This document shows positions 23,084 to 51,275 of a DNA stretch of 64,000 nucleotides, piece after piece. Under the pieces are notes generated by a model, which was not told the origin of the DNA, made no database searches, and saw nothing but the letters and a program-made list of their open reading frames with translations. The position numbers and the translations under genes are program-made. Numbering within the stretch: position 1 is the stretch's first letter; each line of letters begins with the position of its first letter. This DNA is from Acidobacteriota bacterium (lineage in GTDB: Bacteria; Acidobacteriota; UBA6911), in assembly GCA_963664705.1 (NCBI GenBank), contig OY761556.1, forward strand, positions 3,040,001 through 3,104,000. The letters run 5' to 3'.

Positions 23084-24226
23084 TTACCCTGCTATTTTGT
23101 GAACAGCTTTGGCGATGACAGGGATCGCGCGGTCAATCTCTTGATGCGTGGTGTGCCTGCCAACTGAGAAACGAATGGTTCCCATTGCCCACTCCTTCGG
23201 TACCTGCATTGCAGTCAGCACGGCCGAAATTGTTACACCATCAGCATGGCATGCGGCGCCCGCGGACGCAGCGACCTGCTCGCCGATCTCCGAAAGCAAA
23301 GTGGTTGCTTCAATGTTGCGAAAACTCAGGCTGAGTGTGTTTGGCAACCGACGTTCTGGATGGCCATTCAATTGGACGAGGCCATCTCCAAGCTCACGCC
23401 GGAGACCTTCATGCAAACGGTCCCGCATGAACCTGAAATGAACTATATTCCCGTCTAAATCCCTTTGCGCTATTTTGCAGGCATGTCCAAGGCCGACAAT
23501 CTCCAAAACATTTTCCGTCCCAGGCCGCCTTCCGCTTTCATGGTTGGCTCCATGAAGCAATTTTTCCAAACGAACTCCATCCCTGATAAACAATGCACCA
23601 ATGCCCTTCGGCGCATAAACCTTGTGGCCTGCAACCGTCAACAGGTCAACTCCCAATTTATCGACCTCAACAGAAACCTTGCCGATCGATTGCGCAGCGT
23701 CGGTGTGAAATAGTGCTCGGTGCTGATGCGCAATGGTGCAAAGCTCTGCAATGGGCTGTATAGTCCCGACCTCATTGTTAGCGTGCATTACGCTCACCAA
23801 TGCAGTGTCCGCAGTAATCACTCTTTTCAGCTCGGCAGGATCCACCAGTCCGTGCCGATCCACGGGCAAAACAACCAGCCGGAACCCGTGCTGCTCCAAC
23901 CACCAGCAGACTTCCATAACCGCCGGGTGTTCGATCGACGAAGTGATGATCTGCCTCTTCTCATTCTGGTATGCCCACGCCACGCCCTTTATCGCGGCAT
24001 TATTGCTTTCTGTTCCTCCGCTGGTGAACACCAAATTATGCGCCTCACAAGCCAGGAGGTCCGCAACCTGGCTTCGCGCATTTTCGACCGCTTTTTTTGC
24101 AATAGAGCCGAAGGAATGAGCGCTGGAAGGATTTCCAAAATGCTCCAATAAATAAGGCGCCATTGCATCAGCTACTTCTCGGTCAATGGGCGTGGTTGCG
24201 TTGTAATCAAGATAGATAGGTTTCAT
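23084..24226 (-). CDS. NifS/IscS-family PLP enzyme (cysteine desulfurase or selenocysteine lyase)
   Basis: IYLDYNATTP, FTSGGTESNN, HTDAAQ, AGHK (PLP Lys), SAGAACH (catalytic Cys). Confidence 0.92.
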   Translation of the reverse strand: MKPIYLDYNATTPIDREVADAMAPYLLEHFGNPSSAHSFGSIAKKAVENARSQVADLLACEAHNLVFTSGGTESNNAAIKGVAWAYQNEKRQIITSSIEHPAVMEVCWWLEQHGFRLVVLPVDRHGLVDPAELKRVITADTALVSVMHANNEVGTIQPIAELCTIAHQHRALFHTDAAQSIGKVSVEVDKLGVDLLTVAGHKVYAPKGIGALFIRDGVRLEKLLHGANHESGRRPGTENVLEIVGLGHACKIAQRDLDGNIVHFRFMRDRLHEGLRRELGDGLVQLNGHPERRLPNTLSLSFRNIEATTLLSEIGEQVAASAGAACHADGVTISAVLTAMQVPKEWAMGTIRFSVGRHTTHQEIDRAIPVIAKAVHKIAG

Positions 24227-24250
24227 TTCATCCTCATGCAGCCATTCTCA

Positions 24251-24883
24251 TTACTTAGGATCAGAACGCTTAGATGCAATCTCTGCGGCCATTTGCAGGT
24301 GGCGCTCCAAAATAGCAGTTGTCCCACCGGTTGTCTCGAGTGTCAAGTTGAAGATCCGGCAAAACTCACCGGCTCGTTCAAGAAACTGCTGATTCCCGTT
24401 CACACCTGTATCGATAAAGAGGCCTCGTCTGTAGTGCACAAAAAGTCTTTTTGCCATTTCCAGAGGATCTTTGCCATATTTTATCACGCGGTCAGCTTTG
24501 AGATTCTTGATTACGAGCTCCGGGCCGGCATCCGCCCAACCCGGAGTCATGAACCATGTTCCAACCTCCTTGCGGATTTCGCTTGTGTATTTTTCCGGGG
24601 TCATCAGGATCTGGATACAGTCATCCATCTGAGGCATCACAATGGGAATATCAAATTCGGCCTCAATTCCCTTGAGTGACTGGCAGTACCCATACCCCAG
24701 GAATATTACATCCACTCTGTCCTTTATAGAATCGATCTGCTCGCGAATGGCCTCTTTCATTCGTTTCGGATAGCAATGAAGGGCTACTTCAAGATAGATG
24801 ACCTCGCAGATTCCCTGCTTAGACTGCAGAATCCTGTCCAGCTCGAGTTTCATTATGTTGCAGGCAATGACACCGATTTTCAC
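24251..24883 (-). CDS. DUF1638-like protein (corrinoid methyltransferase associated)
   Basis: IAC, LHxxP, LGYGYC, DDCI and WFMTPGW motifs; AAGGA SD. Confidence 0.8.
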   Translation of the reverse strand: MKIGVIACNIMKLELDRILQSKQGICEVIYLEVALHCYPKRMKEAIREQIDSIKDRVDVIFLGYGYCQSLKGIEAEFDIPIVMPQMDDCIQILMTPEKYTSEIRKEVGTWFMTPGWADAGPELVIKNLKADRVIKYGKDPLEMAKRLFVHYRRGLFIDTGVNGNQQFLERAGEFCRIFNLTLETTGGTTAILERHLQMAAEIASKRSDPK

Positions 24884-24896
24884 TGCATCGTCCTTT

Positions 24897-26849
24897 CTAG
24901 ACACGGGGCTGACCAATTGCGAGGGCAACGACTTTTATTTCCATTAATACCGCTTTCCCCCATCCTCCACTGAGCGGTGCCGTCACCTCTTCCATTGTAA
25001 CCGTCAGATGAATGTCTCCTGCTCCAAGCTCCGCAGCCTGCGACTGCGCCATGGTTTGTGCCTTCGCCTTTGCAAAATCCGTAGCTTCCTTAACACTCTG
25101 GAATATTTTCTCCTCTTCGCACGGAACCACGGAATAACCAGATGGCCTGACAGGACGAACCAGGATCAGCGCAGAAGCCACAACTCTGCCGGTAACGGCC
25201 CCGATCGCATTGGCGACATCGGCATTTTCAGGAATTATCAGTTCTGCACCCAGGTGCTCGGCTACATGTGGGAAATAGGCCCTCACCGGTGCACCCACCG
25301 CGATAAGAGGCTTCTTCAACATAAAACGTGCTGATATTCGAGCCTGCGCATCAAGGCGCAGAATGCGTGCAAGCAATTCCTCGGCTTCCGGCGCATGCGC
25401 AGGAATTCCCTCATGGACCAAACAGGTGGAGGTAATCGTCAGCTCCAGCTTCTGCAAAATCTCTTCAAAGACGCGTTGCAGCAGCGCGGATCGATCCAGA
25501 CCTGTCTTCCTTTGGTAATAATTCGCGGCCATGCCGGCCGCATCCTTATCCCACAGGGCCAACGATCCCATGCAATGCAGCAGATCGGATGGCGTGAAAC
25601 ATATTTCTCCCACATACCCCAGATTAGACAAACGATCCAGATCCACCCATGGGCCTGCAATCTGGTCTATCTCATTGCGGTGCAGGACCGTCCCGCGGAG
25701 CGCGCCAAGGACTTGCCTCTCCTGCTTTTCCAGCCAGGGTGGAGGCTCCTTTGTCAGCGTGAAAAAACTCAAATCAAAATCAGTATGCCGAACCCCTTCG
25801 GTCTCGGTCAGCTTTCCGATCTTTTCCTCAAGACTTGAAAATAAGGTCGCTGCATGCGAAATCGGTTCTACCCGACGGGGCCCGATCTGAACGGATCCCT
25901 GAGAGTCGATCGAAATTTTGCTGTCGCCGCCGAGCCCGATTGTCCACATTTTTATGGATCGGATTCGCGTCTGCCAGCCTCCGACAATGGCTCCATCTTC
26001 AACAACGCTTGGCATAGATCCGGCGAGGACGCCAATGTCCGTGGTAGTGCCGCCCATATCGACAACCAGTGCATCATTCAATCCGGTCAGCCAACCTGCC
26101 CCGATCATACTCGCGGCAGGCCCGGACAAAATGGTTTCGACGGGCCTGCTTCTTGCAGCCTTTTCACTGATGAGCGATCCATCTCCCCGCACTACCATGA
26201 TTGGAGCACGAATGCCCTTTTCGACCAGTGATTGCGTCAGCGAATGAAGCAGGTCTCCGATAACAGGAAGAAGCCGCGCATTGAATGCCGCGGTAACGGC
26301 ACGTTCCAGCATTCCTACCGCGCCCGTAAGTTCATGCCCGCAGACGACCGGATGCCTGCAAATATGTTCAATACTCTCTTTGAGCACCAGTTCATGCTGA
26401 GGATTGTAGATGCTGAAATAGCCCGACAAGGCGAATGCATCTACCCGATCCTTCATTTCGAGGATGGTTTTCGTTCCCTCCCCGATATCGAGAGGTATGG
26501 TCTCATTGCCCGATCTGGCATGTGCCCCGCGAATCACTGCGATTTCATCCGCCGGGATACGATCTGGAATCCGGAATGTTGCCGGGTCAGGCACCGCCAT
26601 GATCAAACCAACGCGCTGTCCCTTTCCTTCTACAATGCTGTTGGTAGCCAACGTGGTCGAGAGAGCAACCAGCTGTATCTCGGGAAATAATCGCGCATCC
26701 AGTCCCGCCAAAGACTTCAGAATCCCTATCTTCAAGTCTTGCCTAGTTGTCAGGGCTTTGGATTTAGAAATGACCTGGTGCGCGTTAAAATCGACAATAA
26801 CGCTGTCGGTGAACGTTCCTCCAGTGTCGATGCCTATCCCGTATCTCAT
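24897..26849 (-). CDS. hydantoinase/oxoprolinase family ATPase (ASKHA fold)
   Basis: GIDTGGTFTD, STTLATN, ETILSGPAAS, DMGGTTTD. Confidence 0.9.
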   Translation of the reverse strand: MRYGIGIDTGGTFTDSVIVDFNAHQVISKSKALTTRQDLKIGILKSLAGLDARLFPEIQLVALSTTLATNSIVEGKGQRVGLIMAVPDPATFRIPDRIPADEIAVIRGAHARSGNETIPLDIGEGTKTILEMKDRVDAFALSGYFSIYNPQHELVLKESIEHICRHPVVCGHELTGAVGMLERAVTAAFNARLLPVIGDLLHSLTQSLVEKGIRAPIMVVRGDGSLISEKAARSRPVETILSGPAASMIGAGWLTGLNDALVVDMGGTTTDIGVLAGSMPSVVEDGAIVGGWQTRIRSIKMWTIGLGGDSKISIDSQGSVQIGPRRVEPISHAATLFSSLEEKIGKLTETEGVRHTDFDLSFFTLTKEPPPWLEKQERQVLGALRGTVLHRNEIDQIAGPWVDLDRLSNLGYVGEICFTPSDLLHCMGSLALWDKDAAGMAANYYQRKTGLDRSALLQRVFEEILQKLELTITSTCLVHEGIPAHAPEAEELLARILRLDAQARISARFMLKKPLIAVGAPVRAYFPHVAEHLGAELIIPENADVANAIGAVTGRVVASALILVRPVRPSGYSVVPCEEEKIFQSVKEATDFAKAKAQTMAQSQAAELGAGDIHLTVTMEEVTAPLSGGWGKAVLMEIKVVALAIGQPRV

Positions 26850-28672
26850 TGTGTCGTACCTGGAAAAGAAAGCGATTGAGCAAAAAGTCGGTCAAAGCCC
26901 GGATAGCAAGAGAGCTCGATGTAGCGAACCCGGCGTGCTATCGCTTCCGCCTCCACGCGCTCCTCCTGAGACAGAAGACACAATGCAGCTCCTGATTTTG
27001 ATGTATTGCCGACAAACGCTAATCGATCGGTTAATGCGTGCGGCAGAATACCAATGCGGACAAAGTTGTCGGCCCGGATATGACACCCAAAAGCGCCCGC
27101 GATATATACGCGATCCACTTCGGAGAGATCGAGATTCAGGTATTTGATTAACGCCACAATTCCGGAAAGAACAGCCCCTTTGGCCAATTGTACCTGACGA
27201 ATATCTTTTTGTGTCAACCTAACGGTATCCATCCCATTGCGGCCAAAGCTCAAAACAAAACTGACCCGTCCATCATTCTCTTGGAACCGTTCCGCCAGGC
27301 CTTCGCCACCTATTTTCTCAAATCTACCTGATTGGTTGAGAATGCCGGCATTGAGCATCTCTGCAATCGCATCGATAATGCCGCTCCCGCAGATTCCACT
27401 CGCAGGCTTTGCGCCGATTGTCCTGATGCCTACATCGTCTGCAATCGAAACCTGGTCAATGGCTCCTTCCGCAGCTCTCATCCCGCAACTGATATTCATT
27501 CCTTCGAGTGCGGGACCGGCAGCGCAGGAGCACGCGACGAATTCGCGGCCCGAACAGAATACAATTTCACCATTCGTCCCGATATCGATCAGGAGCGCAC
27601 GCTCATTTTTTTTGGCCAGTTCCGTGGTAAGAATACCGGCCACAATGTCGGCACCGACATAAGCCGAAACAGAAGGCAAACAATACACCTCGCCGAGTGG
27701 AGAAATTTCCAGCCCCACATCGCAGGCACGGAGACTCTGCCCGCCAGTGAAAACCGGAACATAGGGCGAACAGCCAATTCCTGCGGGATCAATCCCGAGC
27801 AGAAGATGCATCATTGTTGAGTTTGCAGCGACGACTACTTCGTAGATGCTCTCCCGGCCGATGCCTGCTTCATCGCATCCTTCGGCAATCAATCCATTAA
27901 TTCCCTGAACGATTGCATGCTGAAGATCCTGAAGCCCTTGATCCGCGTTGCGCGCGTGCTGAATCCGGCTGAGAACGTCCAGCCCGAAAGACTTTTGCGG
28001 ATTGAGGCAAGATCGGATAGCCATTTCCCGGCCGGTGGAAAGATTAAAGAGAGATGCCACAACCGTTGTTGTCCCAATATCCACCGCAACCCCAAAGTTG
28101 GAATCAACTGTATTGCCCGGCTCAATGTCTAACAGAACTCCGTTCGACACTGCGAGGGTAATCTTGTATTCCGAATCACGCAAAATCGATGGCAGCTTAC
28201 GCATTAGCGAAAGCGCAATACGCTGAAGTTTTAACCCCGATGCCTGCTCGATTCGGAAGAGGTCATCTGACGCTTCTTCCAGAGAAGGCGGTGCCATCTC
28301 GACATATAATTTTTGAAGAGAAGGATTCAACATAAACTGCGGCATCAGGCCATCGGAAAGAATCCTGTTCTCCAGTTCCCCCTTTTTGACTATTTCGAAT
28401 GCCGAGTTTCCATGAGCGCTCACCCGGCAAGCAAGACGAATGCCTTGAGCAAGACTCTCTTGATTCAGCAAGCGTGCTTCATCGGGGTGCGGTTCCTCGA
28501 CAATGCCCTCCAGGTGGCGCACAAGGCACTTGCCACAGGTCCCCAAGCCATTGCAGTTTGAATCCATTTCGACAGCAGCTTCCCGTGCCACATCGAGAAT
28601 GCTAGCGCCTTTGGCGGCGCGTACAGTTATGTTATGCGGCAATAAACGCACTTCGATTTCATCTATATGCAT
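26846..28672 (-). CDS. ATP-dependent reductive activator of corrinoid proteins (RACE/RACo-like; N-terminal 2Fe-2S, ASKHA)
   Basis: CNGLGTCGKC...RLAC 2Fe-2S motif, VDIGTTTV, DIGTNGE, GICGSG. Confidence 0.92.
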   Translation of the reverse strand: MHIDEIEVRLLPHNITVRAAKGASILDVAREAAVEMDSNCNGLGTCGKCLVRHLEGIVEEPHPDEARLLNQESLAQGIRLACRVSAHGNSAFEIVKKGELENRILSDGLMPQFMLNPSLQKLYVEMAPPSLEEASDDLFRIEQASGLKLQRIALSLMRKLPSILRDSEYKITLAVSNGVLLDIEPGNTVDSNFGVAVDIGTTTVVASLFNLSTGREMAIRSCLNPQKSFGLDVLSRIQHARNADQGLQDLQHAIVQGINGLIAEGCDEAGIGRESIYEVVVAANSTMMHLLLGIDPAGIGCSPYVPVFTGGQSLRACDVGLEISPLGEVYCLPSVSAYVGADIVAGILTTELAKKNERALLIDIGTNGEIVFCSGREFVACSCAAGPALEGMNISCGMRAAEGAIDQVSIADDVGIRTIGAKPASGICGSGIIDAIAEMLNAGILNQSGRFEKIGGEGLAERFQENDGRVSFVLSFGRNGMDTVRLTQKDIRQVQLAKGAVLSGIVALIKYLNLDLSEVDRVYIAGAFGCHIRADNFVRIGILPHALTDRLAFVGNTSKSGAALCLLSQEERVEAEAIARRVRYIELSCYPGFDRLFAQSLSFPGTTQ

Positions 28673-29682
28673 CAGCCTGTCACTACCTTTGAAAGGCTTT
28701 TAATATTTGCAGCCGGCGTTTTTGTGCTCATGCCACAGGCCGGCGCAAGGATATCCGCACCTGATTTCATGCATCGCCGACCATTAACGTAAACTCGGTC
28801 TGGTTGACCATGGGACAGCAGATAGGTATTTATATTCCCAGTCACGACTTTTGAAGGAGCAAGATCTCGAAGGCGCCTCAGGTTCACGACCGCATCCACA
28901 CTTAAGGATTCCGTATCGATTTCTTCCAGTGCGGTACCCAGGCTATGCACCTTCCCGCAGATATGAACAATGGAGGGAATCCCATACTTTCTGCGAAAAT
29001 GCCCGAGCAGTTGGTTGATATACGGAAGGGCAAACTCCGAAAAGGATTTCTTCCCGATTAGTTCCCCTGAGGCGGAGGGATCGGCAATACATACAAGGTC
29101 CGCTCCGGCCTCTATCAGGGCATCTCCGAATATTTTCAAGTTATCCACGACTATTTTCATCAATGCATGCGCGGCTTCTTTGTTATTAACCAGCGATCTG
29201 TAAAATATAAGAGGCTCGATCAATGACGTTGCCAGGCTGATAGGCCCGGTCAAATTGGCAAACACTGGGAGGCCGGGAGTCTGCGCGTGGAGCAGCCTCA
29301 CCGCCTCAACGCAGACCTTGGCTCGCCCACTTAGCGGATCCAGGTTTTGCAAGCGACCAGTGTCCGCAACACTCTCCATTGGATAGACGGCAACACTTGG
29401 TTCATGCTCCAACGAACCAAGATCTATGCGGGCGCCCATCGCTTCCGCTTCCACGGTCATACAGAATGGCACTCCGACATTTTCAACTCCCGCCCGCCTG
29501 CTCGTCTCAAGTGTCAACAGAGCCATAGCTTGCGGATTAACATGTGCTTCCGGCCATCGACATTGGGAGTCTTCCATTATCTCGGTTACCGCCATGTTCA
29601 TCATGCCGCCAGGGCAAATAAACGGAGGACGATCATATTCCTTTTTTTGCAATACATTCAAAAGTCTGGCTTTGGGATCCAT
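28672..29682 (-). CDS. MtaA/CmuA-like methylcobamide methyltransferase (UroD fold)
   Basis: PFCMTVEAEAMG, VHICG Zn motif, ILAPACG. Confidence 0.9.
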   Translation of the reverse strand: MDPKARLLNVLQKKEYDRPPFICPGGMMNMAVTEIMEDSQCRWPEAHVNPQAMALLTLETSRRAGVENVGVPFCMTVEAEAMGARIDLGSLEHEPSVAVYPMESVADTGRLQNLDPLSGRAKVCVEAVRLLHAQTPGLPVFANLTGPISLATSLIEPLIFYRSLVNNKEAAHALMKIVVDNLKIFGDALIEAGADLVCIADPSASGELIGKKSFSEFALPYINQLLGHFRRKYGIPSIVHICGKVHSLGTALEEIDTESLSVDAVVNLRRLRDLAPSKVVTGNINTYLLSHGQPDRVYVNGRRCMKSGADILAPACGMSTKTPAANIKSLSKVVTG

Positions 29683-29734: not shown

Positions 29735-30613
29735 TTAGAAGCCGTAGGAAATCTGCAGACCGATCCTGGAACGAGCCTGCAGATCAATTCCGGGTGCTAT
29801 CTTCCCGGCAATTTGCGCTACACCGAAATCGAGATTGAGTTTGGAATCTCCTATAGGGGTCAATCGCATGGCATAGGTGATTGTGGTCGGAATAACGGCA
29901 TTCGGGAGCAGATCCGCGTGCGCCGGTTGCTGAGCCAGTTCCATTCCAAAGATTGCGGATGCACCTTTCGGAAGCTTTACCACAAATCCAGCAGCACCGA
30001 ACGCTCTGGCGGTCCACTCCGAAGCATTCCCTCCCATGCCCCACAATTCGGAATTCGTGCTTCGCACTCCTCCGCTCAAAATAATCGGGATATGGGTTTG
30101 TGTGATGGTTTTACTGGCGACAAAGTAAATGTCGCCGTTCGTGGTGTCCTTCTTTTGCATTGCGCCACCCACATTTTGAACCTGGCTACGGGCAATGAAG
30201 CCCACGGACATGGCAGGAACCCATTTTGTGTTAACGGCGTTCTCAGAAACCAAATTCAACTTGCCATGCACAATGTTGAATCCATTGTTCCAGAGCGGAC
30301 TGAAGTTGGCATCTCCACCGGCGGTATGAAGTGCACGCGTGTATCCAAATTCTATGCGTGAAAACGCTCCAACTGTTCCTGAAACATTATAGAAGTCGCC
30401 AAGGACACCACCGCCGTTCAGATAGTGGTAGGCAACAAGCGGATGGCCCAGGCCGGTTTTAGGAGATTGGGCCGTATATGCCAGAGGCGTTACAAATATT
30501 CCAGTCTCTCCTTCCCACCCGATGTTCTGAGCCTTCGCACAAAAATTACATAGGAAGCTCATTGTGATGATCAGCAAGACCGGTATTTTTCTATTCATAA
30601 GATACTTCTCCAC
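29735..30613 (-). CDS. exported beta-barrel outer-membrane protein (DUF3034-like)
   Basis: signal peptide (AKA/Q), EGETGIFVTPLA, amphipathic strands, C-terminal LQISYGF beta-signal. Confidence 0.7.
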   Translation of the reverse strand: MEKYLMNRKIPVLLIITMSFLCNFCAKAQNIGWEGETGIFVTPLAYTAQSPKTGLGHPLVAYHYLNGGGVLGDFYNVSGTVGAFSRIEFGYTRALHTAGGDANFSPLWNNGFNIVHGKLNLVSENAVNTKWVPAMSVGFIARSQVQNVGGAMQKKDTTNGDIYFVASKTITQTHIPIILSGGVRSTNSELWGMGGNASEWTARAFGAAGFVVKLPKGASAIFGMELAQQPAHADLLPNAVIPTTITYAMRLTPIGDSKLNLDFGVAQIAGKIAPGIDLQARSRIGLQISYGF

Positions 30614-30636: not shown

Positions 30637-31695
30637 CTAGTTGTCGAATCTACCGTACTTGCGCGCCGCATTTACGAGAGCGTCGACGTTTTCGGGAGGT
30701 GTATTGAAAGGGATTTCGCAGCCGGACGCGAGAATAAAGCCGCGGCGATCTCCCATTTTTTCGCAGATGGTCTTTGCTTCGGCATCAATTTCCTCCGGCG
30801 TATTCTTCAACATATTTGCCGGAGTGACATTGCCGACAAGCACTACCCTATGGCCCGCTACCGCTTTTGCCTGTCCGAGATCGACATTATCGAGACTCCA
30901 CATATCAAACTCGGCTTCGAGCATTGCGTTCCAGTTAGCAGTGGTTTTGCCGCAGATGTGGAGGACCGCGGGCAAACCTCCACCGTTTTTATGCACATGA
31001 TCCGTAAGACGCTTGAGATAGGGAGCCACGAACTCCTTGAAGTGCACAGGGCTGATCAGGCTGGCCGAGGCAACCGGCTCGACGATGAGCGGCAGCGCTT
31101 TGCGCGCGAGAATCTCATCAATGAACTTGATGCCTGCCTGCGTGCAGATTTCCATAAGTTCATGAACCCATGCTTTGTTTTTAATCAAAGCCCGCGTAAG
31201 TTGGTCCACCGGATACAAAGCACCAGCGGTGGTCAGCGGGCCTGCGAATACAGTAGAAACGCACACCTCACTGCCAACTTCTTTGACCGCAAGTTCAGTC
31301 GCCTCGAGATACACCGGCAATCGCCCATCTTTATTGAAATCCGGAACCTTGACCCTTTTCAGATCCGATCTTTCTTTGATGAGCGGCTCGGAAATTTGCG
31401 GTGCATCCTCTTCAAAAAACTGCATCTTGGTTCCCATCGCCTCGCCGAGCGTAGAAGTCGTGGAGAAAATCAGGATCGCGTCGTTTCCGTATCGTCGGAA
31501 TGCAGCGACATGAGCCTTGGCCATTGTCTTTGCATCGCGGTTATATTTCCCGATCGGGACGCCCAGCACACGGGCCGCGTGGTTGAGCACCAGCGGAAAG
31601 CATGCAATCCGTTGCGGCTTTTCCCCCTTGAGGTAGCAGATGATTCTTTCCAATGAAGACTGGGTATCAGCCGGAATAGAACTGGTTGTGCTCAT
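30637..31695 (-). CDS. UroD-fold corrinoid methyltransferase, second paralog
   Basis: GEAMG, LHICG, FILASGCEIP. Confidence 0.9.
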   Translation of the reverse strand: MSTTSSIPADTQSSLERIICYLKGEKPQRIACFPLVLNHAARVLGVPIGKYNRDAKTMAKAHVAAFRRYGNDAILIFSTTSTLGEAMGTKMQFFEEDAPQISEPLIKERSDLKRVKVPDFNKDGRLPVYLEATELAVKEVGSEVCVSTVFAGPLTTAGALYPVDQLTRALIKNKAWVHELMEICTQAGIKFIDEILARKALPLIVEPVASASLISPVHFKEFVAPYLKRLTDHVHKNGGGLPAVLHICGKTTANWNAMLEAEFDMWSLDNVDLGQAKAVAGHRVVLVGNVTPANMLKNTPEEIDAEAKTICEKMGDRRGFILASGCEIPFNTPPENVDALVNAARKYGRFDN

Positions 31696-32369
31696 TTAGC
31701 CCTCCCCAGGTTTGAACTGTTTTTCGCCACAAGCTTCTTTGCAAGTTCGACCGCATTGGTTGCATTATCCGCATAACCGTCAGCGCCTATCTTTTTTGCA
31801 AAGCCCTGGGAAATTGGTCCTCCGCCTACCATCACCTGAAATGAATTCCGGATCCCTTCTTCCTTGAGCATCTCGATGACGGTTGCCATGCCGTCCATGG
31901 TTGTGGTCATAAGAGTGGACATGCATATCAGTTCTGCGTTGATTTCCTTTGCTTTCTCGACAAAATCGGCCAGTGGGACATTTCTGCCGAGATCATGCAT
32001 TTCAAATCCGGCGACATCCATCATGATTCTCACAAGATTTTTGCCTATGTCGTGTGTGTCGCCTTCCATGACACCGATAACCGCTTTGTGCTTTTCCACC
32101 GTCGAATCCATCTTAAGATGGGGTCGAAGTATCTCCAGACCTGCATACATGGCATCCGAACAGATCAGCAGTTCAGGTACAAAGTATTCTTCCTTCTCAT
32201 ACAGGACGCCTGCTTTATTCATGCCTGCAACCAGGCCGAGGTTGATGGCATCATAAGCGTCATATCCGGCCTCGACCACTTCTCTTGCAGCTTTCACCGC
32301 CAATTCCTCATCCATGAGGAACACTCCGTCCATGAGATCCTTAAATAGATCCCCTCTTTCTCTGGGCAT
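31692..32369 (-). CDS. corrinoid (B12-binding) protein, MttC/MtbC-like
   Basis: EGDTHDIGKNLV (DxHxxG), STLMTTTM, VMVGGGP. Confidence 0.95.
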   Translation of the reverse strand: MPRERGDLFKDLMDGVFLMDEELAVKAAREVVEAGYDAYDAINLGLVAGMNKAGVLYEKEEYFVPELLICSDAMYAGLEILRPHLKMDSTVEKHKAVIGVMEGDTHDIGKNLVRIMMDVAGFEMHDLGRNVPLADFVEKAKEINAELICMSTLMTTTMDGMATVIEMLKEEGIRNSFQVMVGGGPISQGFAKKIGADGYADNATNAVELAKKLVAKNSSNLGRAK

Positions 32370-32439
32370 GTTCGTACCTACCTTTAATGCAAATTATTTG
32401 ATTTATGGACCACGGCGCACCCGCAGGATGTGCCTATGC

Positions 32440-43032: not shown

Positions 43033-43572
43033 CTAAGGCTTTTCGGCGCCTGTTTTATCCGGGGAAGCATCCAATGCCTCCATGATCTTTGCTTCGAGTG
43101 CCTTCTCGTCCCCTCGGTTGTAACCATTCTGATAAAACAGAACCTCGTTCTTTCTGCCGAGCAGATAGTGGGTCGGTGTCATCGTGAGGCGATAATCATC
43201 CATAAGATCATCTTGGGATACACCCAGCAATACGGGCACGGTTATGTGATATTTCTCCGTCCAGCCTGCAATCAGTTTGCTTTCATCCGGCTTGACGTTG
43301 ATTATGACGTAGGACAACCCTTGTTCCTTATATTTGTCGTATATCTTCAGGACTTCTGGTATCGCAAGATTGCAATAAGCGCAACTTGGATAATAAAAGG
43401 CTACCAGGGTTAATTTGTTTGCAAAATCCGGCAAGGTTTTCGTGATGCCTTCGGGAGTTTTCAGCTTGAACGGTTTAAACTTTTCTGCTGCAGGCCCGAG
43501 GGTCGTTAATAGAATAAGGCAACAGACAGTCAGGATGGTAATTTGAATGCTTTTCCTATCGCTTCTTGTCAT
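43033..43572 (-). CDS. exported TlpA/ResA-like thioredoxin-fold redoxin
   Basis: signal/TM segment, FKLKT, FYYPSCAYC (CxxC), cis-Pro TPTHYLL; AAGGA SD. Confidence 0.85.
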   Translation of the reverse strand: MTRSDRKSIQITILTVCCLILLTTLGPAAEKFKPFKLKTPEGITKTLPDFANKLTLVAFYYPSCAYCNLAIPEVLKIYDKYKEQGLSYVIINVKPDESKLIAGWTEKYHITVPVLLGVSQDDLMDDYRLTMTPTHYLLGRKNEVLFYQNGYNRGDEKALEAKIMEALDASPDKTGAEKP

Positions 43573-43683
43573 TTTGTATTCCTTGCAAATGCACTCATTG
43601 ATCACATTCAGGCAAACAAAAATGTCCGCATAATTCAGCGGGCAGCCACAGATGGCCACCCGCCGAAATAAACAGAATATCAA

Positions 43684-44787
43684 CTATTTTGCTGGTTTCT
43701 TTCCGCCGAGGCTGAAAGTCACGCCGAATTGCAGACTCATTTTATTCAGATTCCCGCTTTGCTGGGTGCCGGTAAAGTCCTTCAATATACCACCCCACAC
43801 ACGGACGGGAACTGTTAGAAAATAGGATCCAAGCTTTGTTCTCAGCGACAGGCCTGGGTTCAATGTTACAAGATATCCTGGCTGCCGATATCCCTCGGAA
43901 CCAGTCAGGACATTAAACGTCGGCACTCCCGCAATCTGGCTGCCCAAAGAGACGGAGAGCCCCTTCAAATGCGGGACAGGCGCGGACATGCCGGCATTAT
44001 ATAGATAGGAATCGGGCGTGGCGTTATAGCGCTTATTCGCCGCTACGGCGTCAGGCCCACCCGGGTTAAATGTGGACATGATTGACTGGGTATTGTTCTG
44101 CTCCTTGAAACTGAACAGATATAGAGCATTTGCATACACAGCGAAATGGCTGAACCTTCGGTATCCCTGCATTGCCACTCGGAGCCCGGCCGCACCGCTG
44201 CCAGGTTGTACGTCCGATTTTGCAGCATGGAGCTTGATATCCTGTCCCAGAATATTGGGGAACATAACCTGATAGTCCGAGTTTCCAGTAGGTAATCTGA
44301 AGGCCAACTGGAAGGCCATGTTCTGTTTTGTATTCTTTTCAGGATTGAAGAGCCATACGCGCCCGCCAATTATGGCATCACCCAGGCCTTTGGTTTTCAT
44401 TTCACGCCGTGAGCCTGCAATGGGATAGTTCCAGTAGGAATCGAGTAAGACCGGAACATCTGCGGTGATGTTGATTCTGCGGGTAAGGGCATACGCGCCC
44501 TGGAAGTTTAAGGATGTGCCACCCTGTTTTGGAGCCGCGTCCGCATTAATGAGGTCGCTCCGCAACTGGGTTCCGGTGAAGTATTGGTCGCTGTTAAACC
44601 GATTCAAACTGCCTTGAATCTGCCATTCTCCCTTTTCCAGATAGGGTCCAAGTAGGCCGCCGCTCATGGGGGCCACATTTCTTGCTAAAATTCAACCACA
44701 ACCTTGTGAAAACGCGCTCTGTGGCGCAAGCAGAGCCAGGCAAAGTGCCCACGGCACCAGCCAGCCCAGCAATTTCATCTTTGTCAT
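43684..44787 (-). CDS. exported beta-barrel protein, paralog 2, candidate selenoprotein (QG-C-G-U; UGA at 44692-44694)
   Basis: AAGGA SD; MTKMKLLGWLVPWALCLALLAPQSAFS/QGCG-UGA-ILAR; UGA is codon 32 in both paralogs; GGCC...GGCC hairpin downstream. Confidence 0.85.
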
Positions 44788-45019: not shown

Positions 45020-45061
45020 ATGAATAAAGTATTTACATCCCGCTTCTCCGGCTTCACTTGA
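45020..45061 (+). promoter_or_regulatory. leader peptide D, MNKVFTSRFSGFT-UGA, upstream of the RelE-like gene
   Basis: ends TTC TCC GGC TTC ACT TGA (synonymous variants); conserved arm CGTCGGTACGCCGTC at 45078-45092. Confidence 0.75.
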
Positions 45062-45153
45062 TAATCCTTTCCATACACGTCGGTACGCCGTCATCCTGAT
45101 TTCTCATTTTCGATAATCCAAATTGTGAGCTCATTGCAGCTGCGGAGCTTTGC

Positions 45154-45669
45154 GTGCAAGACACTGCGAAAGATAAGCCTCTTCTTATTCATCGACTCAA
45201 AACCTTTGATCGGAGCCTCGAAGAATTGCGGCACAAAGCCGGATCTGGTGAAATTGCGGCCAGCAAAGCGGAACAGCTGATTCGGCAGCTTTCGGGATCC
45301 AACGATATCAACTTGCGCAGGCAATTCAGATTTACCCGGAGTGGTGAAAACAGGATTACTTATTGTAGAAAATATGATTTGGGTTGCGGGTATCGGCTTG
45401 TATTCATCAGGAAAGGAGAGCAAATCGCCTTTCTATATGTTGGGACACATGACGACTGCTTTCGTTGGATTAGCCGAAATAGGGGATTTACCTACGAATT
45501 CGTTGATTCAATGAATAATCCCGAGCCTCCACGGCCAGAAGCTGAAACCAATCATTTCTCCGATGAACATCAATATCTTGAAACAGACGAATATGAAGAC
45601 CAGCTGATGCGCAAAATAGATGACAAAATTTTGCGGGTTGTCTTTGCCGGCCTGACAACACAGTCTTAG
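45154..45669 (+). CDS. hypothetical protein with RelE/YafQ-like core and acidic tail
   Basis: RKYDLGCGYRLVF...FLYVGTHD resembles the RelE/YafQ-superfamily C-terminus; GGAG SD before GTG. Confidence 0.6.
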   Translation: MQDTAKDKPLLIHRLKTFDRSLEELRHKAGSGEIAASKAEQLIRQLSGSNDINLRRQFRFTRSGENRITYCRKYDLGCGYRLVFIRKGEQIAFLYVGTHDDCFRWISRNRGFTYEFVDSMNNPEPPRPEAETNHFSDEHQYLETDEYEDQLMRKIDDKILRVVFAGLTTQS

Positions 45670-45845: not shown

Positions 45846-48197
45846 TTAAGCTTTACCAAGCGCTTTAAGCACCTTATCCGGCGTGGCAGGCGGGTCTACC
45901 CATTTATCAATTGCATTGTAAATGGCACAGATGATCATATGTGTGTTTGACATGGAATGGCTGATGCCGTTGGCCCCGTAGGTTCCATTGCCGGCGCGCG
46001 TTTCAACCAGACTCGTCTGTAGCTTCGGCACATCCAGCATGCCCGGTTTTTTGTACTCGATCATGTTGGTATTGAGTTTTACGCCGGTCTGCTTATCGTA
46101 GAAGTAGTCTTCAAACATCTGGCATCCCTGGCTGAAGAACGCAACCTGGTCGAGTTGCCCCTCAAGCGAAATGCGCCTGATTACTTTGCCCGAGTCCACC
46201 GCGGCTCCGTACCTCAGGATTTCCACCTCACCCGTTTCTGTATCGACAGCCACTTCGCAGTACAGAGTATTCAGTGTGTCATACTTGCTGGGCCATAGCG
46301 GTGCGGGAGGATGCCCGGCAAATGTCGCAAATACGTTTGACGAGAGACTCTTGATTGGTACCCCGGCAGTCTTGTCTGACTTGAGTACTATTTTGCCATT
46401 TACTATATCCAGGTCTTCCGGCTTCTTGCCCTTCAACGGGTTTGGAGCCGTCTTTCGCGGCGGTCCGAATCCTCCAGCCGCCGGTTTGTCCGCTTCAGCA
46501 ATCGCCGCTTCAAAAATGCGCTGTCTGAATATCTGGCAGCATTCTTTCATGACCCAACCCGTAGCTACAAGTCCGTCTGCCCCTCCGCTAATAGACACGA
46601 ACATTGCATTGGGATCATAATCAATGCTGATATCCGCAGCTTCCAGGCCGAGCTCTTCTGCGGCAATCATGGCAACGCCTTCAACAGAAAATACCCCAGC
46701 ATGGGGACCCTGGATCGGCATGTGCACAACTCCGTTCCGAAGCTCGAGCACTGCGTGAAAATCACTGCCCATTGCATGCCTTGGGCACATCTGGTATCTG
46801 AAACCGGCCCCGTGCATCCTGCCGTCAGGCAGTTTCTTTGCGCCGTTTTTATGCCAGGTCCAGTTCATCATTTTCTTTCCGGCTTCGATGCAGGCGTCAA
46901 AGCTGGGAACCGATCTTGTGTCCTTCTGTCCGTCAGGCCCATGGAGGTTCAGCCTGGCAATATCGATTGGGTCTTTCCCAAGTTTCTCGGCAATTATATG
47001 AATTGCCATAGTAACGGAGTCCCAATTGAAGGGACAAAATTGCGAACTGAATGGCATCAGACCGCGATTGCTGTCCACGATATCCATTCTCTGCCGGATG
47101 TTAAGGCATTTTGTTCCTATGTACGGTCCGTAACCCTGATCGCCAATAGTCCCGAAAAATGAATTGCCTGTAGTGCCGCCGTCGGCAATAGAGAAATCAT
47201 CGAAAGCGGTAATCAGTCCGTCCTTTGTAAATCCCACCTTCATGTGAATAAAACGCTGCTGAATCATGAAATCAAAGGTGTCCTTGCGTGTGTTTATGCA
47301 ACGCACGGGCCTTCCGGTCCTCTTTGCCAGAAGCGGCGTAATCTGCTGGGATCGTCGTATCGTCCAGTCGCAGTACTTGCCACCCTGAAAGAGCCCTTCC
47401 TGTACCGTCTTTTCCGGCGGCAGACCGTACAATTGTCCGATCGCGTTTTTGCCGCCGCTGGCGTGCCAGACAGCGCCTTCTATATGGAGATTATCTCTTC
47501 CAAGGTAAGGATCATCGAACCACCACGCTACGGAACTGTGCGGATTGGGAGAAGCGGAAGCATACGTAGGCATGTTTAGGTCGTATTCGATAATGTAATC
47601 GGCTTCCTTGAAACCTTGCTCTACATCTCCCTGGTTTTGATTTGAATAGGAAACATTCCCTTTTTTCGGAGGATTGTTATTCCCTCCCCCACCGAAAGGA
47701 TTGCTGGGACCGCCTCTATCCTCGGGCCGAATCACCGGAGCGCTGGCTTCTCTTCCCGCTTTGATATCCACGACATGCGGAAGGATTTCCCATTCCACAT
47801 TAAGTGCCTTTAAAGCCTCATCGCAGATATCTCCATTTTCCGCTACCACAATGAATCCCACTTCTATGTTTTCTTCTTCTGCAACATCGGAAATAAAAGG
47901 CTGGGGCGCACCGCCCATGCCGCCACGCTGCAGCTTTTTTAAGTCTTCATCCTTCCATGTGACGATATCCACAACTCCGGGAACAGCCTTGGCTTTTTCG
48001 AGATTGAAACTTTTTATCCTTGCGTGCGCATGAGGACTGCGCAGAAATTTGGCTTCGAGCATATTGGGAACGACATAATCGATTCCGAATTTAGCGAGAC
48101 CCGAGGCAACTGCCCATGACAGTTTGCCGGGCAGGTTTGCCCTGCCGACTACCCTGAAATCCTCTCTTTGTCCGTTAGTTCCTGTTAAATCAGCCAT
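45846..48197 (-). CDS. xanthine dehydrogenase-family molybdopterin-binding subunit (atypical active-site motifs)
   Basis: LRSPHAHARI, LAKRTGRPV, EVAVDTETGEV, VDSGKVI. Confidence 0.88.
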   Translation of the reverse strand: MADLTGTNGQREDFRVVGRANLPGKLSWAVASGLAKFGIDYVVPNMLEAKFLRSPHAHARIKSFNLEKAKAVPGVVDIVTWKDEDLKKLQRGGMGGAPQPFISDVAEEENIEVGFIVVAENGDICDEALKALNVEWEILPHVVDIKAGREASAPVIRPEDRGGPSNPFGGGGNNNPPKKGNVSYSNQNQGDVEQGFKEADYIIEYDLNMPTYASASPNPHSSVAWWFDDPYLGRDNLHIEGAVWHASGGKNAIGQLYGLPPEKTVQEGLFQGGKYCDWTIRRSQQITPLLAKRTGRPVRCINTRKDTFDFMIQQRFIHMKVGFTKDGLITAFDDFSIADGGTTGNSFFGTIGDQGYGPYIGTKCLNIRQRMDIVDSNRGLMPFSSQFCPFNWDSVTMAIHIIAEKLGKDPIDIARLNLHGPDGQKDTRSVPSFDACIEAGKKMMNWTWHKNGAKKLPDGRMHGAGFRYQMCPRHAMGSDFHAVLELRNGVVHMPIQGPHAGVFSVEGVAMIAAEELGLEAADISIDYDPNAMFVSISGGADGLVATGWVMKECCQIFRQRIFEAAIAEADKPAAGGFGPPRKTAPNPLKGKKPEDLDIVNGKIVLKSDKTAGVPIKSLSSNVFATFAGHPPAPLWPSKYDTLNTLYCEVAVDTETGEVEILRYGAAVDSGKVIRRISLEGQLDQVAFFSQGCQMFEDYFYDKQTGVKLNTNMIEYKKPGMLDVPKLQTSLVETRAGNGTYGANGISHSMSNTHMIICAIYNAIDKWVDPPATPDKVLKALGKA

Positions 48198-48255
48198 TGT
48201 ATACCCCCATGATTAATTGCAGCGCTGCGTAGGTTGCGATAATGTAATTAGATTG

Positions 48256-49299
48256 CTAAGCTAATTTTTCCAGAATCGGCTGTAATCTTGATGGCTCCAG
48301 TCCGATTGAAAAGGCGTTGATACCTTCCATAATTTTGAAAGATCCTGATTCAGACTTCGCGTCCATAATCAGTACATTCCCTCCAAAGCGTGGTTTCATA
48401 ATTCCCACACGGTGTTGAACCTGCCCAATGGTTTCAGAGTCAGTGAGGTTCTTTTCCATTAAAGACTCTATTGTGAGATCCGGCCCATTGATTGTCCGCT
48501 TATGCATATCCGCGTATACCGGCGTTTTGTTCACATCCGGAACAACGGACAGAAAGATCACTCTGGAATCAAGCACAGAAGATGTATCGCCGTTGCGATT
48601 CCGCAGCAGTCTTTGGGTTGCAATCTCAACCGGAACATAGTAAGAATCCACTTCTCTGGCCAAAGGCATCTTAAAAGCTATATATCTGCCCAGTTTTTTC
48701 GAATGGAGAACAAATTCCGGGATGCGCTTTGCAGGGTGATGGAACTGACGTCCGAAAGCAATTTCTCCGATTTCGACAACAAGAGGCTTATTGTCGGCAT
48801 CGAGAGCGACCCCAAGAATTCCATCAGGTTCGAGCTCAACGGTAAGGGCAAGCGCAACCCAGGCTTCATACCCTCTCCGAAACATTGCTGTTGTATCTAC
48901 GATAAGATCGTTTCCCACAACCCATTCAAAATCACCCTCAGGTATTTTCCCCTGAACCAGTTCAAATAGCCGGTTGTATATGAGGCGCATCATCCCTTGT
49001 TGGGGATTGTGAAGAAAGCTGGACAGATCGAGCGGCAACTGAATTTTGCAATTTAGTGTATTGGACAACCTGGTTTCAGACTCAATGTAATTTTGCGAGA
49101 GAGCGAAAATGTCCAATGCAAATGAACGGCTCCATGATTCGACGATTGCCGCTCGGACGTTGTCAAAATGCGCATAGAATCTGTCACGCCGATCTTTAGG
49201 AATGTGCACTTCATGTGGAGAAATATGGATTTCCGGGTTTGACGAAATGAATTCACTCAGAATCCCATACTCGCGTTTCCACTTTGGATCAAGAGTCAT
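48256..49299 (-). CDS. hypothetical protein inserted between the XDH-family FAD and Mo subunit genes
   Basis: 347 aa ORF; visibly more AT-rich than its neighbours. Confidence 0.65.
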   Translation of the reverse strand: MTLDPKWKREYGILSEFISSNPEIHISPHEVHIPKDRRDRFYAHFDNVRAAIVESWSRSFALDIFALSQNYIESETRLSNTLNCKIQLPLDLSSFLHNPQQGMMRLIYNRLFELVQGKIPEGDFEWVVGNDLIVDTTAMFRRGYEAWVALALTVELEPDGILGVALDADNKPLVVEIGEIAFGRQFHHPAKRIPEFVLHSKKLGRYIAFKMPLAREVDSYYVPVEIATQRLLRNRNGDTSSVLDSRVIFLSVVPDVNKTPVYADMHKRTINGPDLTIESLMEKNLTDSETIGQVQHRVGIMKPRFGGNVLIMDAKSESGSFKIMEGINAFSIGLEPSRLQPILEKLA

Positions 49300-49319
49300 A
49301 AATATCTTGTCTATGAACC

Positions 49320-49394
49320 GTCCATCGGGTCGGAATCGGAATCGAAATTAGGCTTCCAACCCCAATACCGATTCCGACCGCGAATCCGATGGAC
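49320..49394. repeat. imperfect inverted repeat containing GGAATC hexamers
   Basis: TCCATCGG-GTCGGAATCGG...CCGATTCCGAC...CCGATGGA. Confidence 0.55.
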
Positions 49395-49405
49395 ATTCTA
49401 AATGG

Positions 49406-50356
49406 TTAGACAGTTGCCAGGAGCGCTCGTTTGACGAGCGTCTTTGCGATCTGCACTTTGTACTTGGTGGCACTCAACGGCTTGGCGTCTTCAACCGCAG
49501 CCGCGCCGGCCGCTTCGGCATTGGCTTCATTGATAGCCTTGCCTGCGATCGCCGCTTCGGCCTTGACCGCGCGATACGGTTTCGGGGCAACGGCATTCAG
49601 AGCAATCCTCGGAGCTCCTCCCCCCACCATCACGGCACAGTTGACGATCGGGAAATCGATCGACTTGCGGATGGCGAATTTGAGGAAAGCGCTCTTGGCA
49701 CCGGCCGGAGGGGTCGGGACCTGGATTTCGGTGATGAATTCGCCGGCAGCGAGAACGGTGTTGCCGGGGAATTTGACATCAAAGAAATTCTCGGCATTGA
49801 TCTTGCGCGTGTTGGTCACCACGGAGGCATTCAAAGCAATGAGAGCCGGGGCGACGTCGCTGGGATGAACGGCGATGCATTTGTTGACGTTGCCGAAGAT
49901 GGAGTGATAGCGGTTGTCGCCCATCATAGCAAAGCAGGTTGTGCCACCCTTGCGGACGCAAGGGAACCGGTTTTCCGGCTTCCGGAAGTACCAGCAGCGG
50001 TGGAGCTGAGCGATGTTGCCGCCGATGGTGCCCATGTCGCGGACATGGGGCGTGGCGACGCGCAGAGCTGCCTGAGCCAGAGCGGTGTATTTCGCATTGA
50101 TGTCCTTGTTGGCTGCGACATCCGCAAGGCGTGTGGCGGCGCCGATTTTCAGGATACCGGCTTCTTCCTTGATGTAATCGAGACCCGGGGTAACGGTCTT
50201 GATGTTAATCACGGCTTCGGGGTACGTGGGAAGGATGTTGTCCTTGAGCCGGCCGATGAGATCGGTGCCCCCGGCAATGATTTCTGTTTTTCCGCCGGCA
50301 AGGGCAGTTTTGACCTCGGCCAGGGTTTTTGCATTCGTATGATTGAAACCTTTCAT
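49406..50356 (-). CDS. xanthine dehydrogenase-family FAD-binding subunit (PaoB/YagS-like, with 4Fe-4S insert)
   Basis: IAGGTDL, MGTIGGNI, RCWYFR...C..KGG..C...C insert. Confidence 0.92.
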   Translation of the reverse strand: MKGFNHTNAKTLAEVKTALAGGKTEIIAGGTDLIGRLKDNILPTYPEAVINIKTVTPGLDYIKEEAGILKIGAATRLADVAANKDINAKYTALAQAALRVATPHVRDMGTIGGNIAQLHRCWYFRKPENRFPCVRKGGTTCFAMMGDNRYHSIFGNVNKCIAVHPSDVAPALIALNASVVTNTRKINAENFFDVKFPGNTVLAAGEFITEIQVPTPPAGAKSAFLKFAIRKSIDFPIVNCAVMVGGGAPRIALNAVAPKPYRAVKAEAAIAGKAINEANAEAAGAAAVEDAKPLSATKYKVQIAKTLVKRALLATV

Positions 50357-50368
50357 GAGTGTCTCCTC

Positions 50369-51091
50369 CTATGCCTTGCCCATAGCCTGAGCTGCTTCCA
50401 TAATTGCGGTAGGATGCCGCGGGTAGGTTCCACAGCAGCAGATATTGCCGGCGAGAGCCTGTTTGCAGTCATTCTCGGTCGGATTGGGATTCTTCTGCAG
50501 CAGAGCCTTGGCCGAAACGACGAAGCCCGGAGTGCAGTAGCCGCACTGCATCGCGTCCCACTTGCAGTAGGACTGGATGAGGGAGCGCCATTTGGGATCG
50601 GCGGCAATTCCTTCGACGGTCTCGATGGATTTGCCCTCGCATTCGACCGCCAGGGTCGAGCAGGAGAGGACGGTTCTGCCGTCAATGTTCACGGAGCAGG
50701 AACCGCATACGCCGCGGTCACACATCTGCTTGGCTCCGGTAAGACCGAGTTTGAACTGCAGAGTGCGCTGAAGGGTCCAGTGCGGCTCGATGAGGACTTC
50801 GTACTCCTTGCCGTTCACCTTGAGTTTGGTAGCAACAGGGAGCGCATATCCGGGATGTGCCTGGGCGAAGTGGGTTTTCAATCCGCCATACGTGTTAAAA
50901 TCTTTTGCGCAGACCGGGCACTTGAAGTTGGTGATGGTCGTGGGAGCTTCTGCGGCAGCCGCAGCAGCCGCTTCGGTGGACAGGGTAAGGCCTGCTCCCA
51001 GAGTGCTGCCGGCTACAACAGCGCCTGCACTTTTAAGAAAATTTCTTCGATTCAGTCCTGTTCCTTCGTTGATAATTGTTTCATCTGCCAT
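50369..51091 (-). CDS. xanthine dehydrogenase-family 2x[2Fe-2S] subunit with Tat signal and C2H2-like finger
   Basis: NRRNFLK; CPVC-x12-H-x4-H; CDRGVCGSC; QCGYCTPG; NICCCG. Confidence 0.93.
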   Translation of the reverse strand: MADETIINEGTGLNRRNFLKSAGAVVAGSTLGAGLTLSTEAAAAAAAEAPTTITNFKCPVCAKDFNTYGGLKTHFAQAHPGYALPVATKLKVNGKEYEVLIEPHWTLQRTLQFKLGLTGAKQMCDRGVCGSCSVNIDGRTVLSCSTLAVECEGKSIETVEGIAADPKWRSLIQSYCKWDAMQCGYCTPGFVVSAKALLQKNPNPTENDCKQALAGNICCCGTYPRHPTAIMEAAQAMGKA

Positions 51092-51233
51092 GGCAGGTCC
51101 TCCTTAAGATTATTTGCCATCGCGTATCTAAACGCATACGCAAAGGACAGCCAGCCGAACTTGGGTGGCCTGGGAAAATCAAACCGCATTTTTAGGAAAG
51201 TGAATGACGACGTACCGGCGTTTCTTAGTGCGT

Positions 51234-51275
51234 TCAGGTAAAGCCGGAGAACTTATAGCGTGGGATTCTATTCAT
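51234..51275 (-). promoter_or_regulatory. leader peptide C, MNRIPRYKFSGFT-UGA, upstream of the molybdoenzyme operon
   Basis: ends TTC TCC GGC TTT ACC TGA; conserved arm CGCCGGTACGTCGTC at 51206-51220. Confidence 0.75.

Follow-up and report, generated by a model that had tools for sequence, protein, structure and literature searches.

A UGA-ending leader with a SECIS-like hairpin heads accessory selenium operons in an Acidobacteriota genome: a candidate ribosome-based sensor of selenocysteyl-tRNA

Microbial selenium sensing is an open question, and the closest described systems are arrest peptides and selenium-responsive operons. In TnaC, ribosome stalling is coupled to Rho-dependent termination. 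The PepNL leader of Escherichia coli is a 14-aa open reading frame (ORF) whose nascent peptide hinders release factor 2 (RF2) at a UGA, and a UGA-reading tRNA counteracts the arrest (PMC11890864, in excerpt). The bacterial precedent found for selenium sensing is the selAB operon of E. coli, which is repressed by SelB-GTP-Sec-tRNA through an element resembling a selenocysteine insertion sequence (SECIS) in its 5′ untranslated region (UTR) (Thanbichler and Boeck 2002, as described in the relevant part of PMC13449736). In Methanococcus, SdmABC-like genes and yedE rise upon selenium depletion, the SdmABC counterpart by 5.6-7.8 log2-fold (PMC11097638, in excerpt). Here we describe a block at positions 23084-51275 of a 64,000-nt stretch of DNA (the window) from an Acidobacteriota bacterium (contig OY761556.1, positions 3,040,001-3,104,000), whose genome, labelled G000, was assembled as one contig of 6.9 Mb; positions are those of the whole stretch. 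The block is selenium-centred, containing selenocysteine (Sec)-making genes together with likely selenium-scavenging operons, and it harbors short leaders that end in UGA ahead of a SECIS-like hairpin. We think it probable, though well short of certain, that these leaders act as a ribosome-based sensor which turns the accessory Sec and selenium-scavenging operons on when Sec-tRNA is scarce.

UGA-ending leaders in the block and in related genomes

The class I leader has the form M-x7-FSG[FY]T-UGA followed by a SECIS-like hairpin, and four were identified in the block. The leader before the corrinoid operon (32400-32481, minus strand) has an ORF at 32481-32440 with ATG at 32481, 13 codons ending FSGFT, TGA at 32442-32440 and TAG one codon on, while the leader before selA (36030-36112, minus) has an ORF at 36112-36065 with GTG at 36112, 15 codons ending FSGYT, TGA at 36067-36065 and TAA four codons on. 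The third, before an ORF that starts at 45154 (leader 45020-45095, plus; ORF 45020-45061), begins with ATG at 45020 and has TGA at 45059-45061 with TAA immediately next, and the fourth, before an operon resembling xanthine dehydrogenase (XDH) (leader 51200-51275, minus; ORF 51275-51234), begins with ATG at 51275 and has TGA at 51236-51234 with TAA two codons on. Each is followed by the hairpin. The sequence-only reading had counted four UGA-ending leaders, and these FSG[FY]T-TGA ORFs bear the count out, the ATG of the last coinciding with the claimed end of the block; beyond the claimed leaders, a fifth UGA leader of a different type precedes selD.

A six-frame search of the 6.9 Mb genome for FSG[FY]T-TGA returned only four matches, all inside the block, and FSG[FY]T followed by TAA or TAG did not occur in the genome. 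A look-alike at about 41477, which follows TAA and has neither start codon nor hairpin, was dismissed. Among the 29 genomes of the genus, the C-terminal pattern was matched in 12, with a total of two matches for a reversed control pattern. The resulting 25 pattern matches were chosen on their last six codons alone, and the features outside these codons were strongly enriched, with an ATG exactly 13 codons before the TGA in 21 (1.5% of random TGA sites), a second stop 0-4 codons past the TGA in 22 (17.5%) and a downstream hairpin in 23 (0.16%). Two matches (L001 and L002, one of which has the ATG) lie inside coding sequence and were taken as chance. A leader model trained on the remaining 23 returned 44 matches over the 42 sources searched, of which L124, also inside coding sequence, was likewise set aside as chance; the ORF ends in [FY]T-TGA in 43 of the 44.

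Across the 43 leaders, Gly is encoded by four codons, Ser by three and Phe by two, position -4 of the peptide varies (S/T/A/L and others), and the N-terminal eight residues are free to vary. The synonymous codon variation, together with the amino-acid change at -4, indicates that conservation acts at the peptide level. The second stop lies within four codons in 39 of the 43, and the hairpin loop GG[U/G] is located 16-22 nt past the UGA in 40; the same CGGU core was observed after several Sec codons of the G000 genome, including that of the housekeeping selD. In the hairpin alignment 96% of cells pair, and the sequence is nearly invariant. The 50 nt after the hairpin are C-rich overall (C/G 1.42 versus 0.99 in 2138 upstream windows), a difference reached by none of 10,000 resamplings, in which related genomes are not independent, and the genome contains two rho genes. 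The leaders are always oriented toward the downstream gene, with the next start codon at least 70 nt past the UGA. Promoter-like -10 boxes were seen by eye near the leaders; in a sigma-70 and terminator scan, counts were no different from those in shuffles. Rfam gave no match for class I or class II leaders. In addition, L125 and L126 (G021 and G022) carry a TAA within the short ORF with the UGA and hairpin intact, and are possibly decayed leader copies.

A refined model detected the leader in 19 of the 29 genus genomes (one at E 0.007), in none of 21 other genomes of the family and in one of 86 from other families of the class (G389), while three weak matches in five genomes of other phyla (E 0.017-0.24) were rejected on inspection as no real leaders. 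The commonest targets are XDH-like operon genes, which follow 13 of the 44 matches, and TonB-type receptors follow nine (four by Pfam and five by likeness to those four). The accessory selA follows four and the corrinoid gene directly follows two, others preceding ATP-binding cassette (ABC) operons, activase/dehydratase operons and, in one case, a YedE. Four relatives contain the accessory selA, with the leader directly before it in three and heading the upstream ABC genes in the fourth, and in G007 the same leader precedes the orthologous corrinoid gene. At two further loci the leader heads other gene sets. In G018 (L235, 7445-14196) these are a TonB receptor, NifH-like and nitrogenase-component-1-like genes and an ABC binding protein; in G389 (L285, about 9414-12905) they are a Sec-containing barrel, a TusA-like ORF and a TusA-like/methionine-synthase-like fusion, named by eye, making L285 a second candidate methyl-selenium salvage operon.

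The class II leader before selD (36284-36510, plus) lies back to back with the selA leader and consists of a short ORF ending W-x-x-G-TGA (TGA 36347-36349), an invariant structured core and a terminator-like hairpin. It was detected in five of the 29 genus genomes at 75-79% identity; variation in its open frame is synonymous. An intrinsic terminator (GC stem and U run) is found in all five relatives and is degenerate in the window copy. Four copies precede selD, either directly or with other genes inserted between, and two precede a methyltransferase. Folding revealed competing helices, yet no clean or consistent switch either at equilibrium or in truncated transcripts, and a simple antiterminator model for this leader gained no support.

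Proposed sensing mechanism and competing explanations

The selA, selB, selC and selD genes all lie within the block, as the sequence-only reading had stated; this was confirmed by NCBIfam, whose cut-offs selA, selB and selD exceed, and by the tRNA-Sec. They comprise the accessory selB (32596-34509, minus) and selA (34534-35937, minus), a selD fused to a CMD domain (36533-38143, plus) and a second tRNA-Sec gene, selC (38215-38309, plus). A complete second set, the housekeeping copies, is located elsewhere in the G000 genome, to which the accessory proteins are 34% (SelB) and 40-41% (SelA) identical. Housekeeping-type selA was found in 27 of the 29 genus genomes (about 40% identical to the island copy) and island-type selA in only four, at 71-80% identity. 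The catalytic site of SelD carries Sec in the housekeeping copy and Cys in the island copy, Cys being present also in all three island-type SelDs examined in relatives. The island SelD further has a Cys cluster at its N terminus and, C-terminally, a Cys-pair linker with a CMD/AhpD domain, all of which are kept in relatives. The second sel set and the Cys form of SelD indicate that the block is accessory and able to make selenophosphate without prior Sec. Since TGA also terminates ordinary genes, among them selB and the corrinoid gene, UGA reassignment was ruled out. Outside the window, a tRNA-like element of 72 nt with anticodon UCA (G000 C1 1625651-1625722, minus) has a mismatched acceptor stem and is not of tRNA-Sec fold; the ORFs flanking it presumably correspond to rtcR and rtcB/rtcA, which they resemble.

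In the proposed mechanism, the ribosome would make the 13-residue peptide and arrive at the UGA. With Sec-tRNA present, SelB-GTP-Sec-tRNA bound on the hairpin would insert Sec, the ribosome would meet the second stop 0-4 codons on and leave, and the C-rich tract thus exposed would allow Rho to terminate transcription. With Sec-tRNA absent, the conserved FxGFT peptide would hinder RF2, the ribosome would stay and transcription would continue, in the manner of TnaC and PepNL. Since the ribosome would advance only 0-4 codons after Sec, how long it dwells is a likelier signal than where it stands. The class II leader would reach the same outcome for selD through its intrinsic terminator, and the LysR regulator (39196-40131, plus), the ArsM-like methyltransferase (38342-39091, minus) and two outer-membrane barrels (40253-41350 and 43684-44787, both minus) would be selenoproteins that need Sec for a full-length product. 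The fuller claim, namely a whole selenium-starvation regulon run by a SECIS-coupled FxGFT-UGA arrest peptide (RF2 against Sec-tRNA) and a terminator-based selD UGA leader, beside an effector-domain Sec-LysR and a mature-N-terminus Sec-channel, is put forward tentatively, and we rate it somewhat below an even chance.

Several observations weigh against this mechanism. The 44 model matches include the 23 training sequences, and kin are not independent. The hairpin is weak in most leaders (about -2 to -6 kcal/mol), and its covariation was not above that of shuffles in the class I alignment. Tails with more C than G were observed in only 29 of the 43 leaders, that of the corrinoid leader having 9 C and 10 G. 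The class II terminator remains formed at equilibrium in five of six copies. Among truncated transcripts, sequestration of its 5′ arm was strongest with the ribosome five codons past the UGA; this modelled result could indicate the opposite direction, with expression on after read-through. The link of the XDH-like operons to low selenium is unexplained, and in G389 the leader heads a barrel gene that itself requires Sec.

If Sec insertion turned the operons on, the block would be a unit for utilisation or detoxification under selenium-replete conditions, a reading favoured by the Sec-containing barrel of G389, by the selD leader, whose folding sequesters the terminator arm best after read-through, and by the fact that molybdenum hydroxylases can require a selenium cofactor, although TIGR03311 matches only weakly. 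We regard this as unlikely, since a Cys-SelD and a second SelAB would add little while the housekeeping Sec-SelD works, and since the precedents point the other way: uptake and SdmABC-like genes are starvation-induced in Methanococcus (PMC11097638, as excerpted), and E. coli selAB is repressed by SelB-GTP-Sec-tRNA (PMC13449736, same part). The sequence-only reading held that the direction could not be read from sequence, which we judge too cautious. The Cys-SelD backing a Sec-SelD, the second SelAB, the SdmABC-like operon, YedE and the TonB-type receptors together point to probable induction at low selenium.

A second possibility is that the block works as a single integrated homeostasis island whose promoters are controlled, on top of the leaders, by a Sec-LysR produced only under sufficient selenium. 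All parts lie inside 28 kb, the best NCBIfam match of the LysR is a selenium-associated LysR model, and HrsM, also a LysR, represses Cys back-up genes in Methanococcus (relevant part of PMC11097638). This match is below the cut-off, however (177 versus 250 bits), and the LysR was found neither in 60 relatives, including four with accessory selAB, nor in 400 genomes of the phylum. At the five other LysR loci, several of which are short contigs, no sel genes were observed among the neighbouring ORFs listed. Gene order is also not kept when synteny is compared across relatives, where modules recur in differing order: in G007 the demethylase operon, selD-selC, TlpA, barrels, PQQ protein and selAB are spread over five short contigs in another order with no LysR match, and a comparable cluster that includes transport genes occurs in G020. 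The barrel was present in one of the 29 genus genomes, and outside G000 it is linked to the leader regulon in one genome, G389. An integrated island of this kind is thus improbable too. The two uses of UGA set out in the sequence-only reading, Sec codons inside genes and UGA-ending leaders, are both real and conserved; what was not supported is that they form a single integrated, conserved island. The block is a mosaic of recurring modules, in which the conserved unit is the leader-headed module and not a fixed two-layer circuit, as the LysR was not found in the 60 relatives and elsewhere apparently sits outside selenium loci. Most likely, the LysR-arsM pair was added locally and does not act as the master switch of the island.

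The hairpin alone might also serve as a SelB binding site of the E. coli selAB type, with the short ORF incidental. The selAB 5′ UTR provides a precedent (PMC13449736, in excerpt) and the hairpin sequence is nearly invariant, but the fixed ATG at -13, the peptide-level conservation and the nearby second stop speak against it, and the next start codon lies at least 70 nt past the UGA versus 3 nt from the element to the Shine-Dalgarno (SD) sequence in E. coli (same excerpt), so we consider this quite improbable. It is very improbable that the leaders have no sensing role and serve as DNA operators or encode small free selenopeptides: the compact bipartite motif near promoter-like -10 boxes (by eye) would suit an operator, but sequence variation tracks the degeneracy of the code, every leader points toward its downstream gene, the first eight residues of the peptide are free to vary and a read-through product would be longer by just 0-4 residues. 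A ribosome-based sensor that is on when Sec-tRNA is scarce remains the reading we prefer.

Selenoprotein candidates and other genes of the block

The sequence-only reading had listed four UGA-interrupted genes, and four genes with a single in-frame TGA and an open homologous frame beyond it were indeed recovered, encoding the ArsM-like protein, the LysR and the two paralogous barrels. The ArsM-like methyltransferase (TGA 38480-38482) belongs to a known selenoprotein family by its sequence, sharing the fold and the UxxG site with arsenite methyltransferase selenoproteins (NF008823; PMC13188914 Table 1). Its score of 192 bits falls short of the NF008823 cut-off (263), and the C-terminal fusion domains of NF041536 and NF041537 are absent. 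Elsewhere in the genome, paralogous genes of about 600 aa appear to make up an expanded selenoprotein family; their in-frame TGA falls in a G[HDG]-U-x-x-C motif, and most have SECIS-like hairpins (G000 C1 769201, 2672994, 3545351, 3553263, 4763923, 6765277, 6853641, 6870141 and 381682). Scanning the whole genome for selenoproteins by coding potential gave results too noisy for a count.

The LysR, divergent from arsM, has its TGA at 39892-39894 (codon 233) and looks like a real selenoprotein of a predicted new family. A total of 112 database proteins share at least 51% identity, its own entry included, and 105 of these end at the equivalent residue (UGA). Six DNA loci, again counting its own, all carry the TGA and a conserved C-terminal frame beyond it, together with a stem whose GGU loop lies 20 nt past the UGA; the codons CGC CTG GTA GGC are invariant in all six and the flanks vary. 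The DNA context is known for only these six because the scans gave few family members: one contig scan found nothing, another returned 80 loci of which 79 were generic LysRs, and a metagenome scan gave four family members among 39 loci. No Cys was found at the site equivalent to Sec233 among the 112 close homologues, and distant LysR-type transcriptional regulators (LTTRs) have Ser, Asn or His there. Sec machinery was recorded in the hosts G000 and G451 (a Ca. Acidoferrum genome), the latter with selB above the cut-off, and the named homologues of both the LysR and the barrel are from Acidobacteriota. The best NCBIfam match is the LysR_Se/HrsM model NF040786. The nearest solved structures are NdhR/CbbR (5y2v) and YeiE (8sbh, 7erp), with which the full-length LTTR fold aligns over residues 9-299, Sec233 aligning to the Ser or Asn that follows ELG there. 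This is presumably not the position of Cys199 in OxyR. In YeiE, Glu145 and Arg191 are named as pocket residues (PMC8931317, in excerpt). The part of PMC9312934 that bears on it mentions LysR_Se as a selenium-related regulator and not as a selenoprotein, 'LysR' does not occur in the main texts of PMC13188914, PMC13326102 and PMC12013277, and no Sec-containing LysR was found in the open-access literature searched.

The barrels likewise look like a predicted new selenoprotein family, of the channel class. The TGA (41255-41257 in barrel 1; 44692-44694, codon 32, in barrel 2) sits just after a signal-peptide-like segment, at the mature N terminus, and one TGA at this position was observed in 11 of 11 barrel loci and also in G389. 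A Cys homologue is P0145. Hairpins are present, those of the window copies being without the GGU loop. The fold was modelled on barrel 2 (predicted local distance difference test, pLDDT, 82), barrel 1 being its paralogue, and the best matches were FapF (5o67, E 5e-13) and a COG4313 channel (4rl8, E 3e-9). The beta-barrel fold is common to both, at about 10-12% identity, and the barrels differ in their predicted Sec at the start of the mature chain (Cys in P0145). Neither the LysR nor the barrel family is found in the 119-family table of PMC13188914, as far as the excerpt extends. Between the two barrels lie a pyrroloquinoline quinone (PQQ)-like beta-propeller protein (41495-42934, minus), which has many paralogues in the genome, and a TlpA-like thioredoxin with CxxC (43033-43683, minus).

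The operon behind the first class I leader contains a corrinoid protein (31692-32369), two methyltransferases of the MtaA/URO-D family (30637-31695 and 28672-29682), a RACo/AcsV-like corrinoid activator (26846-28672), a hydantoinase/oxoprolinase-like protein (24897-26849), a DUF1638 protein (24251-24928) and, as its last gene, a NifS/IscS-like cysteine desulfurase (23084-24226), a candidate Sec lyase whose orthologues (71-73% identity) adjoin leader loci in G017 and G018; all are on the minus strand. A corrinoid protein and two URO-D-type methyltransferases thus share one operon, as in SdmABC, and these three proteins probably form an SdmABC-like methyl-selenide demethylase. A gene without family (29735-30613, minus), with no counterpart at the equivalent position in G007, has a signal-peptide-like N terminus and a C-terminal Phe, which suggest an outer-membrane barrel.

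At the other border, the XDH/aldehyde-oxidoreductase-like operon (45846-51091, minus) consists of a large subunit (45846-48197), an unassigned ORF (48256-49299), an FAD subunit (49406-50356) and an Fe-S subunit with a twin-arginine translocation (TAT) signal (50369-51091). Three paralogue loci of its FAD and Fe-S subunits in G000 (C1 67011-68663, 4312852-4314513 and 5998593-6002823), 93-99% identical to those of the island, are without a leader; such identity beside more divergent large subunits suggests recent duplication or gene conversion. The ORF at 45154-45669 (plus) has weak ParE/RelE-like similarity (Pfam E 0.007; Atlas 0.87), and its close unnamed clusters are mostly from Thermodesulfobacteriota. 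It is the last gene of the XDH-like operon in relatives and is here inverted with its own leader, so that it stays under a leader in two arrangements; its product might act on ribosomes stalled at Sec codons and clear them. A Mutator-family transposase (51617-52798, plus) lies directly beside the XDH leader, and two tRNA-Pro genes (55311-56355) are located 4-5 kb beyond it. The GC content is 0.48-0.54, versus 0.53 genome-wide.

Significance and comparison with described systems

If the proposed sensor is real, a leader of about 90 nt that reports Sec-tRNA supply could serve as a selenium biosensor. As the leader marks its regulon, it also nominates uncharacterised TonB-type receptors, ABC transporters, XDH-like enzymes and barrels for a role in selenium acquisition. 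With the LysR and barrel families, the selenoproteome would gain a DNA-binding and a channel class, and more than 100 LysR database entries are truncated at the UGA. No Sec-sensing leader peptide was found in the open-access literature searched, and the novelty would lie in leader-peptide control with a new input and in two predicted new selenoprotein families, set in a mosaic accessory island.

Compared with PepNL and TnaC, the class I leader likewise appears as a short, presumably translated ORF with conserved C-terminal residues at its UGA, but it differs in the FxGFT motif and in the SECIS-like hairpin and second stop after the UGA; in place of the UGA-reading tRNA of PepNL, Sec-tRNA carried by SelB would compete, and stalling is predicted. 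With the E. coli selAB UTR it shares a SECIS-like RNA upstream of selAB, whereas the E. coli element, placed 3 nt from the SD, acts by repressing translation (PMC13449736, in the part cited above) and the class I leader has a putative UGA ORF and a distant start codon and heads many unrelated operons. The HrsM regulon and SdmABC of Methanococcus offer the same kinds of genes, responsive to selenium shortage, namely Cys back-up enzymes, a corrinoid and URO-D-type methyl-selenide system, YedE and TusA; there a DNA-binding LysR exerts the control, and the sensed signal is stated to be unknown (both from excerpts of PMC11097638), whereas here the leader would control and the LysR itself would carry Sec.

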